Shown: positions 4,661 through 50,545 of the stretch, piece by piece
How positions within the stretch are numbered: the first letter of the stretch is position 1
Layout: every line of letters begins with the position of its first letter
DNA from: Oleiphilaceae bacterium
Lineage (GTDB): Bacteria > Pseudomonadota > Gammaproteobacteria > Pseudomonadales > Oleiphilaceae
Direction of reading: 5' to 3'
Length of the DNA stretch: 64,000 nucleotides
Assembly (NCBI GenBank): GCA_033721915.1
Contig: JAWWAC010000011.1
Span: forward strand, 1,131 to 65,130
Position numbers and translations under genes: made by a program
The notes under the pieces: generated by a model
What the model was told of the DNA's origin: nothing
Database searches by the model: none
What the model saw: the letters and a program-made list of their open reading frames with translations, nothing else

Positions 4661-4705
4661 GTGCATGTCATTGGGGTGCATGTCATTGGGGTGCCTGTCC
4701 CGAAA
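4661..4705 (-). repeat. Cluster F of the GGGACAGGCAC word: two diverged 15-nt tandem units plus one canonical copy
   Basis: Plus strand reads GTGCATGTCATTGGG GTGCATGTCATTGGG GTGCCTGTCCCGAAA. The third unit carries the exact core GTGCCTGTCC (4691..4700). It lies 38 nt upstream of the brnT start, with the word co-oriented with brnT on the minus strand. Confidence 0.8.
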
Positions 4706-4900
4706 TGCCCCTAAGAGATGCAGAGAGGTTTTGCTATCACAAGAGTGGGGAGAGCTGGCCTTTGAGAAAAGGGCAAATTTCATGGGCTGTAAATTTGCAA
4801 AACGGTGAGTTTAGCTGAGGAAAATTCTGGCTTTATGAAGCGCCCACGACGGCATCCCTGAAGAACACTCAGAAACCAAAACAAAGAAAGGGAAAAATAA

Positions 4901-4977
4901 TGGTCGGCGTGGCAGGACTCGAACCTGCGACCCCCTCGTCCCGAACGAGGTGCGCTACCAGACTGCGCCACACGCCG
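4901..4977 (-). tRNA. tRNA-Pro (anticodon CGG)
   Basis: Reverse complement is CGGCGTGTGGCGCAGTCTGGTAGCGCACCTCGTTCGGGACGAGGGGGTCGCAGGTTCGAGTCCTGCCACGCCGACCA. It folds as a cloverleaf (7-bp acceptor, GCGC D-stem, anticodon loop TTCGGGA, TTCGAGT T-loop, encoded CCA). Confidence 0.95.
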
Positions 4978-5069
4978 CTTGCAGGCCGCTCATTATACAT
5001 AAGCGGCCCGGGATTGCTAACCCTGAATGGCCCCCTGCCCGGGGCGGGCGGAAGGCGTTGTCAGGGGTC

Positions 5070-7157
5070 TTAACCGGCGTTGCCGGAGGGCAGCAGGCCG
5101 ATGTCGGCGACCTGCAGGAACAGCTGGCGCACGCGCTGGAGCAGGGCCAGTCGGTTGCGTTTCAGGGCCGGGTCTTCGGCCATGACCATGACCTGGTCGA
5201 AGAAGCGGTCGATGGGCTGTTGCAGTTCGGCCAGTGAGCGCAGACCCTGGTCGTAGTCGCCCTGGTCGAACAGGGGCTGCACTTTCTGCTCCTGTTGTTC
5301 CAGTGCCTGGTAAAGGGCCTTCTCCGGGGCCTCCTGCAAGGCGTCCGGGTGGACGCTGAGGGTCTCCGGGGTGTCGGACTGCTTGGCCAGGATGTTGGCC
5401 ACCCGCTTGTTGGCGGCGGCCAGTGCCTGGGCTTCCGGCAGCTGGCGGAAGCTGTTGACGGCTTCCACGCGCTGGTGGAAGTCCAGTGGTCTGGTGGGGC
5501 GACGTGCGTGCACGGCCAGGTAAACCTCGGCGGGGATGCCCTGCTCTTCGTAGATGGCCCGGAAACGCTCCAGCAGGTAGTCCACCACCTTGTCCACGGT
5601 GTCGGTCTGGGTGAGGCAGTCGAAGCCGGCCTCGGCCCAGCGGCACAGTGTGTCCAGGTCCAGCGGCAGCTGGCGTTCCACCAGGATGCGCAGCACCCCC
5701 AGTGCGGAGCGGCGCAGTGCGAAGGGGTCCCGGGTACCGGTGGGGGGCTGGTTGATGCCGAACAGGCCCACCAGCGAGTCCAGCCGGTCCGCCAGTGCCA
5801 GTGCGGCGCCGGTGTCGGTGATGGGCAGCTGGTCGCCGGCGAAACGGGGCAGATACTGCTCGTTCATGGCCAGTGCCAGCTCTTCCGGCTCGCCGTCGTG
5901 GCGTGCGTAGTACTGGCCCATGGTGCCCTGCAGGTCGGTGAACTCCAGCACCATTTCAGTGACCAGGTCGGTCTTGGCCAGCATGGCGGCGCGGCGTGCC
6001 AGCGGGGCGTCAGTGCCCAGGGCATCGGCGATCTTCTCCGCCAGTGCGGCCACCCGCTCGCTCTTGTCGTGGATGCTGCCCAGTGTTTTCTGGAAGACGA
6101 TGGGCCTGAGCTGTTCCACCCGGTTGGCCAGTGGGGTCTTCAGGTCCGTCTCGTAGAAAAAGGCGGCGTCCGCCAGTCTCGGACGGATGACCTTTTCGTT
6201 GCCCTCGATCACCGCCTGCGGGTCCTTGCTGTCGATATTGGCCACGGTGATGAAGTGGGGCAGCATGCGCCCTTCCTTGTCCAGCACGTGGAAGTACTTC
6301 TGGTGCTCCTTCATGGAGGAGACCAGTGCCTCGGCGGGCACCTGCAGGAAGCGCTCCTCGAACTGGCCCAGCAGTGGCACGGGCCACTCGTTCAGGGCGG
6401 TGACCTCGTCCAGCAGGTCCGGGTCGATGACCGCCTCGCCGCCGGTCTTCTCACGGGCCAGTGCCTGGACCCCTTCCCGGATCAGTTCACGGCGCCTGGC
6501 GAAGTCCGCCAGCACAAAGCCCTGCTGCTCCAGCACCAGTTCGTAGTCCGCCGGTGTGGAGATCATCAGTGCCTGTGGGTTGTGAAAGCGGTGGCCACGG
6601 GTCTCGTGTCCGGCGCTGCGGCCGAGGATCTCGCAGGGGACCACCTGGGGGCCGAACAGCATCAGCACCCAGTGCACCGGGCACACAAACTCCTCACGGG
6701 AGGCGCCCCAGCGCATGCGCTTGGGGATGGGCAGTCCGTTGAGTGACTCCCGCACGATCTCAGGCAGCAGCTCAACGGTGTCACGGCCTTTTTCCAGGCC
6801 CCGGTACACCAGCCAGGCGCCCTTGTCCGTCTCCATGGTGTCCAGCTGGTCCGGTGTCACCCCCAGTGAGCCGGCAAAGCCCTGCAGTGCCTTGGTGGGG
6901 TTGCCGGCGTCATCGAAGGCGGCCTTGACGGCAGGGCCGCGTTTTTCAAAGGGCTTGTCCGGCTGGGCATCGCTCAGGCCCTCCACCCGCACGGCCAGTC
7001 GCCGTGGTGCGGCAAAGGCCCTGACCGCGCCGAATTCCAGCCCTGCCTGCTTAAGGCGTTGTTCAATGCCGTCGGTGAAGGCGGCGGACAGGCCGGTCAG
7101 CGCCTTGGGTGGCAGCTCTTCGGTGCCGATTTCTACCAGAAAATCCTGGGCGCTCAT
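5070..7157 (-). CDS. glyS: Glycine--tRNA ligase beta subunit
   Basis: [20 protein letters not shown] is the canonical GlyS N-terminus. The protein is full length, with an ATGA overlap with the glyQ stop at 7154-7157. Confidence 0.95.
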
Positions 7158-48570: not shown

Positions 48571-49803
48571 TCAGGCTCGACGCGGCTTGATGGCGTGCAG
48601 CCCCAACTGCGTGATGGCGCCGCCGACCGTAAACCAGGCACTTTGCTTGGGCTTGGTGTTTTTGCCCGCAGCCAGTCTTGCCAGCTGAGTTTCATAGAAG
48701 GTAATGTCCAGCATAAAGGCCTTGTCCAGACCTTTGAAGCCGGTGCTGGGCCTTTTCAGCGTCAGGCTGATGCTGTTGTCCGCCAGCAGATCTCGGGGCC
48801 AGGCCGGAGCCACGGCCACCGGGCGGGCCAGTCCGATCAGGTCGGTTGCGCCGCTGCTGAGCGCGTCACTCATGGCAGCACCGGAGCGGAAACCGCCGGT
48901 GACCATAAGGGGCACGGAGGTATGCTGGCGCACGGCTTCTGCGTACTCAAGGAAGTAGGCTTCCCGTTTACGAGTGGACTCCGCCACCTTGTGGCCGGTC
49001 ATGGCCGGGGATTCGTAAGTGCCTCCGGAGATCTCGATCAGGTCGATTCCTGCCTCGGACAGAGCCCTCACCACGTCCATGGACTCCCCTTCACTGAAGC
49101 CGTCCTTCATGAAATCCGCTGAGTTGAGTTTGATGCCAATGGGGAAGTCCTCACCCACTTCCTGACGGATGGCCTGATACACAGAAAGCACAAAGCGGCG
49201 GCGATTCTCAGGGCTGCCGCCCCATTGATCGTCCCGTTGATTGTGACGGGGCGAGAGAAACTGGCTGACCAGATAGCCGTGGGCGCCGTGGATCTGTACG
49301 CCGGAAAAACCGGTTTCTTTGGCCTTGCCGGCAGCGTAGGCGAACTCCCCGATAATCACCTGGATCTCTTCCTCGCTCAGGGCTCGAGGCTTGGCAAACA
49401 TCTTCTCCAGCCCCCGTCCCAGGGGAATGGCGGAGGGGGAAACCGGCTGAGGGTTGAGAAAGCGGGGGATTTGTTTGCCCGGGTGGTTGAGCTGCATCCA
49501 CAAACGACTGCCGTTGACCTGCCCTTCACTGGCCCAATGGCGGAAAGCTTCCAGATCGCTTTGCTGGTCCAGAACGACGTTTTTTGGCTCCCCCAGTGCC
49601 TGTCGGTTGATCATGACGTTACCGGTCATGGACAGGCCCAGGCCGCCTTCTGCCCATGTGCGGTAAAGCCTGGCCAGCCCCGGCGTGGGGTTGTGTTGGC
49701 GGTCGCCAAGCTGCTCGCTCATGGCGGATTTGGCCAGGCGGTTCTTGAGGGGGGCACCACGCTGTAGTGGCAGGTCACTGTTGAGGGTAATGGCGTCTGT
49801 CAT
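48571..49803 (-). CDS. NADH:flavin oxidoreductase, Old Yellow Enzyme family
   Basis: LKNRL.KSAM, QLNHPG, GFSGVQIHGAHGYLVSQFLSP and TGGFR motifs. Confidence 0.9.
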   Translation of the reverse strand: MTDAITLNSDLPLQRGAPLKNRLAKSAMSEQLGDRQHNPTPGLARLYRTWAEGGLGLSMTGNVMINRQALGEPKNVVLDQQSDLEAFRHWASEGQVNGSRLWMQLNHPGKQIPRFLNPQPVSPSAIPLGRGLEKMFAKPRALSEEEIQVIIGEFAYAAGKAKETGFSGVQIHGAHGYLVSQFLSPRHNQRDDQWGGSPENRRRFVLSVYQAIRQEVGEDFPIGIKLNSADFMKDGFSEGESMDVVRALSEAGIDLIEISGGTYESPAMTGHKVAESTRKREAYFLEYAEAVRQHTSVPLMVTGGFRSGAAMSDALSSGATDLIGLARPVAVAPAWPRDLLADNSISLTLKRPSTGFKGLDKAFMLDITFYETQLARLAAGKNTKPKQSAWFTVGGAITQLGLHAIKPRRA

Positions 49804-49832
49804 GAGGACTCCGTTGGCAGGTAGGCATGGGT

Positions 49833-50441
49833 TTATTGACTATTTGAGGGTGCCAGCAACCGATCCAGGAGCTGGTCGAGTGTCTGGTGCAGTGAATCGC
49901 TGTTCCCCAGCAGTTTCATACGCAGGATGGCGCCTTCCCAGTGATTCCAGAACAGGATGCTGATGCTCTCAGGGGACAGGTCCTGTCGGAACTGGTCTTG
50001 TGCCTGTCCCTCTGCCACCAGTTCGGTGAAGCGGTTTTGCCAGCGGTTGTAGGCATCGTTGAGTGCTTGGCGACAGTCTGGACTGGCGGCGCCGATTTCA
50101 GCAGCCAGGTTGCCCAGAAGGCACCCCTGTACACAGTCGTGGCGTTCGAACTCGGCGATCATTTGGCGGTAGAGCTGACGTATTCGCTCCCGTGGGGAAG
50201 TGCCCTGTCGGGCCAGGGCCATGTCCATCAGCCCCAGTAGCCAGTCTGAGTAATCACGGATGATAGCCGCGGTAAAGGCTTCCTTGCTGGGGAAGTAGTG
50301 GTAGAAAGAGCCTTTGGGTACGCCAACCCGATCGAGCACCGCCTTGATGCCTGTGCCGTGATAGCCCTGCTGTGAAAGCAACTCGCGTCCAGCGTTGAGT
50401 AACGAGGCTTTGACCGGGTTTTGTGTCGCAGGGACAGGCAT
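49833..50441 (-). CDS. TetR/AcrR family transcriptional regulator
   Basis: HTH YHGTGIKAVLDRVGVPKGSFYHYFPSKEAF. I prefer the ATG at 50441, because the 15 extra codons of the track ORF are translated repeat (MPVPVT..). Confidence 0.85.
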   Translation of the reverse strand: MPVPATQNPVKASLLNAGRELLSQQGYHGTGIKAVLDRVGVPKGSFYHYFPSKEAFTAAIIRDYSDWLLGLMDMALARQGTSPRERIRQLYRQMIAEFERHDCVQGCLLGNLAAEIGAASPDCRQALNDAYNRWQNRFTELVAEGQAQDQFRQDLSPESISILFWNHWEGAILRMKLLGNSDSLHQTLDQLLDRLLAPSNSQ

Positions 50442-50545
50442 GGGGCTCTCCGGGACAGGCGTGGCAATGGTTACCGGGACAGGCACGGTGTTTCGGTGTT
50501 TCAGGTGACATCCGGAACGGGCATCGACATATCTGGGACAGACAT
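50432..50545 (+). repeat. Cluster E of the GGGACAGGCAC word (1 exact plus about 4 variants, + orientation) in the tetR / ion-channel divergent region
   Basis: GGGACAGGCAT at 50431, GGGACAGGCGT at 50452, GGGACAGGCAC at 50476, and degenerate GGAACGGGCAT at 50514 and GGGACAGACAT at 50535. The first copy supplies the ATG of tetR on the opposite strand. Confidence 0.85.

Follow-up and report, generated by a model that had tools for sequence, protein, structure and literature searches.

The word and the Y1/HUH gene of the window

The stretch of Oleiphilaceae DNA analysed here (64 kb of contig JAWWAC010000011.1, below called the window) carries a short word with the 10-mer core GGACAGGCAC, which recurs in its intergenic spacers and in its genes, and, at 46330-47295 on the minus strand, a gene for a 321-aa protein of the Y1/HUH type, i.e., a transposase-like protein of the kind that acts on single-stranded DNA (ssDNA). 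The core is present in 25 exact copies (16 on the plus and 9 on the minus strand; 0.39 per kb), a count that reproduces exactly that of an earlier reading of the same DNA, made from its letters alone (the original prediction). The large excess claimed at that time was also borne out when the window was compared with Markov models of order 1-5 with the word masked, which predict 0.35-0.63 copies, and with dinucleotide shuffles, which contain 0.28 copies on average and 2 at most. The core is by a wide margin the top 10-mer of the window, the runner-up having 10 copies, and the consensus is slightly longer, a-[G/A]-GGACAGGCAC-[T/A]. Its central dinucleotide is GG, the sole abundant allele in the window, with at most one copy of every other allele. 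When up to one mismatch is allowed, 39 matches are found versus 9.3 expected, and the 14 one-mismatch variants taken as a class are, therefore, close to chance and mostly background outside the arrays. Of the "about a dozen" variants reported previously, those located within clusters (..GGCAT, ..GGCGC, ..GGCCC, and GGACAGACAC) do represent degenerate copies of the word.

The 321-aa protein belongs to subclass 2.3 of the TnpA_Y1 proteins and is RAYT/TIRYT-like, as is evident from its Pfam and NCBIfam matches, its motifs and its fold. It matches Pfam Y1_Tnp with 24.8 bits (cut-off 23) and, partially, NCBIfam REP_Tyr_transpos (REP-associated tyrosine transposase), and possesses the HUH motif NHYHLVV, GHFWE, and the tyrosine motif AYVDLNPIRAG, with residues that are invariant in two family alignments. 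A family profile search reaches E. coli TnpA_REP (4ER8) at an E-value of 1.4e-4. The same structure is the best PDB match in a Foldseek search with the AlphaFold model of the protein (pLDDT 79; E 2.6e-5, TM 0.64 on the target), followed by the TnpA structures of ISDra2, IS608, and IS200. Subclass 2.3 has been characterized by a length of ~325 aa, a ~55-aa insertion between beta3 and alphaC and a long C-terminal tail (Quentin et al., 2018, Table 1; PMC6006769). The protein has the NHYH motif, the conserved W in 'WE', YVDLNP and the Y1/HUH fold, and also agrees in size, with its 321 aa, an insertion and a long C-terminal tail; the insertion is apparent from the alignment with 2.1-like proteins and appears in the model as helices 80-154 inserted in the core. 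Residues ~210-321 are conserved within subclass 2.3, are modeled with low confidence and gave no structural match; this C-terminal third may serve in DNA binding.

Linkage of the word to Y1 genes in relatives

The association of the word with genes of this type was examined in two samples. In the motif-first sample, one genome per species was scanned for two exact 11-mers 4-34 nt apart, which yielded at least 119 loci from Planctomycetes, Acidobacteria, Verrucomicrobia, low-GC Clostridia, Coriobacteriia, Geobacterales, and many Gammaproteobacteria. At many of them conservation is limited to precisely the word, and the flanks are lineage-specific. Searches with tblastn and jackhmmer revealed Y1 homologs at 13 among the 119 motif loci listed (824 kb) and none in 26 control or viral loci (353 kb). 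The geometry is characteristic: 5' of the Y1 gene the copies are on the gene strand, at a distance of ~100-500 nt, and 3' of the gene they are on the opposite strand, at ~170-530 nt. It is found in Neptuniibacter, Vibrio sinensis, other Gammaproteobacteria, and a metagenome-assembled genome (MAG) of the Planctomycetaceae (37% identity), and the same geometry accompanies shorter, 2.1-like proteins in Geobacteraceae and an actinomycete MAG. The 3'/opposite-strand part of it is present in loci L027, L080, L073, L095, L097, L156, L159, and L163. All four homologs fetched by protein sequence, i.e., those of Marinobacter sp., Oleiphilus messinensis, Ectothiorhodospira BSL-9, and Arsukibacterium, carry (N)GGACAGGCAC in their flanks, and a fifth Y1 gene, met by chance in L163, is preceded by two copies and followed by three, all oriented as expected. 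In several carriers (L159, L156) the motif is confined to the flanks of the Y1 gene and occurs nowhere else in 21 kb.

The protein-first sample consisted of 80 metagenomic relatives (28-59% identity), which were fetched by protein and not by motif. The exact word was present in just 4 of 76 of these loci and was, therefore, rejected as a universal end motif of the family; since it is rare in the metagenomic flanks, where variants occur instead, the pattern was generalized to GGACA-NN-CAC. In the 5' flanks this pattern occurs on the gene strand at 18 of 53 loci (29 sites) and on the opposite strand at none of the 53, and in the 3' flanks on the opposite strand at 18 of 58 loci (32 sites) and on the gene strand at one of the 58, where simple arithmetic predicts ~0.4 sites per orientation in each flank set. 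The sites lie ~80-200 nt upstream (peak 77-89 nt before the start) and ~160-430 nt downstream (peak 157-330 nt after the stop). CC is the commonest central dinucleotide (32 sites), followed by TC (13), GG (7), CA (5), and CG (2), and 8 of the 9 two-sided loci have the same one at both ends. The central dinucleotide is, in other words, an allele, which differs between lineages and matches at the two ends of one gene, and which in the window is GG.

Some further observations were made at these loci. A TTGACA hexamer resembling a -35 element is located ~10-40 nt downstream of the proximal 5' copy in L156, L157, L159, L163, L166-L168, L177, and L180, and, because it usually follows this copy, the 5' copy likely sits upstream of the promoter of the Y1 gene and thus outside its transcript. 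No further covarying element, a potential guide, was seen by eye in the vicinity of the motif. In Ectothiorhodospira BSL-9 (L158) four Y1 paralogs are interleaved with BrnT/MqsA modules. Geomonas (L001, L101) has a longer unit, GGGGACAGGCACCTGGCGGAGCCAGTC, whose 5' part is the word and which includes a small hairpin (CTGGC-GGA-GCCAG), so that the motif is joined to a REP-like stem-loop in some lineages.

Intergenic arrays and copies inside genes

As originally predicted, 18 of the 25 exact copies reside in six intergenic clusters, each with a single orientation and irregular spacing, which contain 1 (4691), 6 (21137-21334), 4 (28263-28454), 4 (39988-40178), 2 (46061-46124), and 1 (50477) exact copies. 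Cluster A (4656-4705, minus strand) lies between tRNA-Pro(CGG) and a brnT-like gene, and its one exact copy is followed by two copies of GCAC-CCCAATGACAT, a partial duplication that begins inside the motif. Array B (21137-21334, plus) occupies the yrdC/sua5-hemF spacer with six exact copies and one ..GGCAT variant, the nearest copy being 34 nt before hemF. Array C (28242-28476, minus), between a DoxX gene and the gene of a 299-aa protein starting at 28138, holds four exact copies and the degenerate copies GGACAGACAC, GGGCAGGCGC, and GGATAGGCAT, and array D (39976-40178, plus), between SCO1/SenC and tetR, holds four exact and three one-mismatch copies, including a 17-nt tandem repeat (GGACAGGCACACTTTCG x3.6). 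The array 3' of the Y1 gene (46061-46156, plus) is oriented opposite to that gene and comprises two exact copies and one ..GGCAT variant, with a partial duplication (GGCACTGCAAT x2); judged by its position and orientation, this array would be the gene's own 3' end motif. Array F (50432-50545, plus), in the divergent spacer between tetR and an ion-channel gene, has one exact copy and the variants ..GGCAT, ..GGCGT, and GGGACAGACAT. The spacer between rsmB and trkA, 41 nt long, has a single copy (14839-14848, minus), which is separated from the trkA start codon by 3 nt. T is strikingly scarce on the motif strand of the spacers that hold arrays B, C, and D (8-13%, and 8% in array B).

The arrays do not conform to the classical types of repeat, as the original prediction had rightly noted for palindromic REP/REPIN elements, CRISPR arrays and simple tandem repeats. 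The unit is a non-palindromic 11-mer with variable flanks and not a 20-40 bp imperfect palindrome, its consensus (a-R-GGACAGGCAC-W) contains neither the GTAG nor the CGTC tag of classical REPs, and the single orientation within every cluster differs from the inverted pairs and alternating orientation of REPINs and BIMEs. For a CRISPR array the repeat of 11 nt, the irregular spacing of 16-118 nt and the presence at many loci are equally atypical, and no cas genes are present among the array neighbors examined, which are housekeeping, regulator or transporter genes. Once the motif was masked, no sequence shared between clusters was found beyond degenerate motif copies. A miniature inverted-repeat transposable element, i.e., internal sequence within terminal inverted repeats with a target-site duplication, was rejected as an explanation since the arrays have no common passenger sequence. 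The genes flanking the arrays show no functional theme. Five of the six clusters had been described as lying upstream of the next gene and in its orientation; this geometry is real, but where both neighboring genes point the same way, a cluster is just as much downstream of the gene before it, and for divergent or convergent spacers the geometry carries no information.

Comparison of orthologous loci in sister lineages revealed that the arrays are lineage-specific. The yrdC-hemF spacer measures 248 nt and contains six copies in the window, but measures only 85 nt in L161 (90% HemF identity) and 31 nt in L162 (86% HemF identity), and has no copy in either; seven copies form a separate array in the neighboring ygjV/yrdC spacer of L162. 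Neither relative has the copy that the window carries between rsmB and trkA. The Halomonadaceae MAG to which L162 and L163 belong harbors 15 copies in 34 kb, a density similar to that of the window, and in 14 kb of a third relative (L164) the word is not present. At the site of array B, L161 (6658-6742) has AACCAGGCACTCTT x3, which shares CAGGCAC with the word and may be a decayed or variant copy.

Across phyla the arrays take the form of n repeats of a local spacer plus the motif. A recurrent footprint is MOTIF-X-(G)GCAC-X, in which the last 4-5 nt of the motif and the next 7-11 nt are duplicated; the window provides examples at 4656-4699 and 46120-46141. Among 29 such partial duplications from several phyla the left boundary is GGGACA|GGCAC in 10 and GGGACAG|GCAC in 3. 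TnpA_REP enzymes are known to cleave at CT or CA (PMC8266576).

The word also occurs within genes, with seven exact copies in coding sequences, whereas 2000 within-gene synonymous-codon shuffles gave a mean of 0.61 and a maximum of 3. In the lipid A acyltransferase gene one copy (8302-8311, plus) encodes W-GQA-L with the rare codons GGA and GCA, and a second, 200 nt downstream (8502-8511, minus), is antisense to Q-CLS-L. Other copies encode Q-GQA-L in an HlyD-type membrane-fusion gene (41217-41226, plus), V-GQA-Q in an AcrB-type RND pump gene (42894-42903, plus), K-DRH-F, with the rare codon AGG, in a metallo-beta-lactamase-fold gene (47808-47817, minus), and E-GQA-Q in a tetR gene (50000-50009, minus). 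Four coding copies thus read G-Q-A via the rare codons GGA and GCA, and the word is present at every site in the 52 kb of coding DNA where GQA is followed by a C-initial codon, with ~0.009 expected per site. In the two word-rich sequences, the window and L163, the WGQAL peptide of the acyltransferase is encoded with GGA CAG GCA, while L164, which has no copy in its 14 kb, uses GGC CAG GCT; the antisense copy shows the same pattern of presence and absence across relatives. In the glyS gene of L163 the word encodes GTGT, where the ortholog in the window has QTDT (CAG ACC GAC ACC). The coding copies involve no indels and, therefore, insertion of an element cannot be their cause.

Several features adjoin the arrays. 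Array D is directly abutted by perfect heptamer microsatellites at 39902-39977, (AAAGCCC)5 into (CCAAGGG)6, which recall the heptamer repeats found between genes in cyanobacteria. The GTG predicted as the start of the tetR ORF at 49833-50486 overlaps array F (copy at 50477), and the true start is probably further downstream. Beyond cluster A, tRNA-Pro(CGG) (4901-4977, minus) is followed by two toxin-antitoxin-like pairs, i.e., a BrnT-like ORF (4351-4623, minus) with its partner (4092-4358, minus) and a second pair at 3454-3768 (minus) with an HTH partner at 3162-3476 (minus); this region (3162-4977) may be an integration hot spot.

Origin and spread of the word

We consider it likely that GGGACAGGCAC is the cognate motif of the subclass 2.3 Y1/HUH ssDNA transposase-like protein encoded at 46330-47295. 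We are highly confident of the linkage between the word and the Y1 gene and moderately to weakly confident of the mechanistic details of the spread of the motif. Among the possibilities raised in the original prediction, that of a mini-repeat tied to the RAYT of the window is strongly supported by this linkage and by the bracketing geometry. In this lineage the motif would have escaped its gene and multiplied as solo copies and same-orientation intergenic arrays, as REPs have done for RAYTs. If it works like TnpA_REP and IS608, the enzyme would bind the motif on ssDNA and cut after CA (GGGACA^GGCAC). A segment between two direct copies would then be excised and re-joined at another copy, which would add units of spacer plus motif and produce both the irregular arrays and the partial "(G)GCAC + spacer" duplications. 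An extra force would make or keep the word inside genes by base substitution. The arrays themselves are probably selfish or commensal repeat DNA and not regulatory sites.

A number of observations weigh against this interpretation. All motif copies beside the Y1 gene of the window lie 3' of it (46061, 46115, 46147), and its 167-nt 5' spacer (47296-47462) is free of them, unlike that of most relatives. The inverted-repeat bracketing that typifies a TIRtron was found in relatives. Since the copies are confined to the 3' side, this gene may be a one-ended, immobile remnant and no longer a complete unit. The strict GGACA-NN-CAC pattern is present in just ~1/3 of the protein-first loci. Shuffled 11-mers of the same composition gave 10 and 10 pair matches in the viral collection versus 16 for the word, and a large share of the cross-phylum motif-pair matches may, therefore, be chance tandem repeats or coding repeats; just 12 among the 119 loci listed have three or more copies with unrelated flanks. 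The copies inside genes arise by substitution without indels and are not explained by ssDNA cut-and-paste. Furthermore, the motif has no hairpin, whereas every characterized Y1 transposase recognizes one, our literature search found no biochemistry for subclasses 2.1 or 2.3, and the binding, strand specificity and cut site of the Y1 protein are those we infer by analogy.

The source of the coding copies may be selection, a substitution-type drive as for uptake sequences and HIP1, or enzyme-linked conversion, and because the word is enriched inside genes through codon choice, an uptake-signal-like role may act as an additional force beside the Y1 linkage. One can go further and regard the word as a genome-wide signal that is held by selection or substitution drive, like DNA uptake sequences, Chi or HIP1, with the Y1 protein as a domesticated host reader and transposition as a minor process. 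This is what the seven coding copies versus 0.61 expected, the use of GGA-CAG-GCA at all four GQA sites with a C-initial codon, the WGQAL codons that follow the abundance of the word across genomes and the GTGT of glyS in L163 would suggest, and ~0.4 copies per kb falls in the density range of uptake sequences. We nevertheless regard it as rather unlikely, since three-quarters of the copies are densely packed into intergenic arrays that show local duplications, an arrangement foreign to uptake or Chi-type signals, since the inverted bracketing of Y1 genes with matching alleles is the signature of a transposon-like unit, and since several relatives (L159, L156) have the motif at gene flanks alone; moreover, no strand polarity is evident along the window. 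The apparent spread over many phyla had also pointed to a universal cellular signal, an idea undone by the shuffled 11-mer controls. Complementarity to rRNA, tRNA, RNase P or SRP RNA was considered as well, as were the sigma-54 -24 element, CsrA GGA sites, KOPS, Chi and boxA; none of these fits the word. Still bolder, and in our view doubtful, is the proposition that GGGACA-NN-CAC is the allele-coded recognition word of a widespread, largely domesticated and hairpin-free family of ssDNA HUH enzymes (2.1, 2.3). Where this system is active it would, beyond building intergenic arrays by cutting and re-joining, also overwrite near-cognate sites, even in essential genes, with rare codons and altered amino acids as the price. 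If true, such enzyme-linked overwriting would amount to a sequence drive coupled to a protein, for which no bacterial example has been described.

A role of the arrays in cis, either as multimerized operators of a global regulator or as a sense-strand RNA element in 5' leaders or 3' UTRs, appears very improbable. The sense orientation in 5 of 5 informative co-directional spacers of the window and in 5 of 6 coding copies, the copies close to the start codons of trkA and hemF, and the known action of REPs as 3' UTR elements (PMC3733652; bioRxiv 10.64898/2026.03.23.713779) are in its favor. Yet the three largest arrays are no more structured than shuffles (z +1.6, -1.9, -1.15) and an Rfam search of the window yields tRNA-Pro only, with no family at the arrays, so that the RNA element in 5' leaders hypothesized in the original prediction finds no support. 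The sense bias is also weaker in other motif-bearing genomes, where 13 copies are sense and 9 antisense (13 of 22), as far as crude ORF-based gene calls in high-GC DNA can tell. In addition, the flanking genes are functionally unrelated, the arrays are missing from the orthologous spacers of close relatives, and the 5' copy at Y1 genes lies upstream of the TTGACA hexamer, outside the transcript. That the excess is a mere by-product of low-complexity slippage (GGSACA hexamers, T-poor spacers) without a dedicated protein partner is scarcely credible. The motif can be read as GGGACA + GGCAC(A), loci L026, L011, and L083 are plain microsatellites or Gly-Thr coding repeats, and control 11-mers give similar pair-match numbers in viral contigs; slippage would, however, not lead to exact, dispersed copies with unrelated flanks, to copies inside coding sequences, or to a fixed geometry with the Y1 gene across phyla.

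Significance and relation to known systems

Assignment of the word to the Y1 protein provides a cognate motif for a large group of RAYT-like genes (2.3 and, apparently, 2.1) that are annotated simply as "transposase" and for which the reference classification found no associated repeats. A short, non-hairpin motif with a matching variable dinucleotide offers a clean substrate for tests of site choice by Y1/HUH enzymes and could perhaps be reprogrammed, as the guide sequences of IS608 can. The assignment also accounts for a class of unusual intergenic spacers, poor in T and full of repeats, that occur in marine Gammaproteobacteria and in other phyla. If the gain of the word in genes by substitution is real and enzyme-dependent, codon usage and protein sequence would be shaped by a selfish or domesticated element in a way that is new.

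With regard to previous work, Di Nocera et al. (2013; PMC3733652) described RAYT-like "TIRYT" genes that are flanked by inverted repeats in place of REPs and form "TIRtrons"; these repeats share GGGGWSAS and form "moderately abundant families", many of them "in dimers or clusters". Quentin et al. (2018; PMC6006769) equated the TIRYTs with subclass 2.1, placed subclass 2.3 deep inside 2.1 and reported it to be without flanking REP-like structures. Bertels et al. (2017; PMC5581495) noted a weak enrichment of 16-mers beside Group 1 (= 2.1) RAYTs, and surveys based on 16-mers would miss a unit of 11 nt. Both GGGGACAG and GGGGACAC match GGGGWSAS. The earlier statement that the word belongs to no described repeat family thus has to be modified, since the TIRYT repeats fit GGGGACAG, while the form associated with subclass 2.3 is indeed undescribed: our literature search found neither a cognate motif for subclass 2.3 nor an allelic central dinucleotide, and a full-text search for the word and its reverse complement returned just TP53 primers and other unrelated matches.

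The resemblance to the uptake sequences of Neisseria (DUS) and Pasteurellaceae (USS) and to cyanobacterial HIP1, which is one of sequence alone, lies in a word of 9-12 nt that occurs about once per 1-3 kb and also inside genes, via codon choice and tolerated amino-acid changes; dense direct arrays and a bracketed transposase-like gene set the word of the window apart. With the IS200/IS605 elements (IS608, ISDra2) it shares, by analogy, Y1/HUH ssDNA chemistry and a short cleavage or target sequence, there of four or five nucleotides, and their excision as circles and insertion beside a specific short sequence without target duplication is the model for the growth of arrays proposed here. Those elements, however, have subterminal hairpins, both ends read on one strand, and tnpA (± tnpB) in mobile multi-copy elements, unlike the present system, in which hairpins are lacking, the ends are inverted and the mobile unit is seemingly the motif alone.

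The REP/REPIN-RAYT systems (REPtrons, E. coli TnpA_REP 4ER8, Pseudomonas REPINs) are closer, with the same Y1/HUH fold, usually one or a few copies of the gene, flanking by the cognate repeat in inverted orientation, and a high-copy intergenic repeat, mostly between co-directional and convergent genes, with lineage-specific turnover. REPs are, however, palindromes of 20-40 bp with a GTAG (or CGTC) tag in inverted doublets (REPINs) or alternating BIMEs, whereas the unit described here is non-palindromic, has no GTAG and forms direct arrays. The TIRtrons have in common with it a RAYT-like Y1 gene, non-hairpin inverted flanking repeats, GGGGWSAS, families that are sometimes clustered, and an occurrence in Planctomycetes, Acidobacteria, and Proteobacteria. 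In contrast to the TIRYTs (2.1), the protein is of subclass 2.3, with ~320 aa, two insertions and a C-terminal domain of its own, the conserved unit is only 10-12 nt long, direct copies in arrays make up the ends, the central dinucleotide is allelic and the word is hyper-abundant (~0.4 per kb), also in coding DNA. The word and its Y1 gene thus belong to the REP/RAYT-TIR/TIRYT world, in a hitherto undescribed form.

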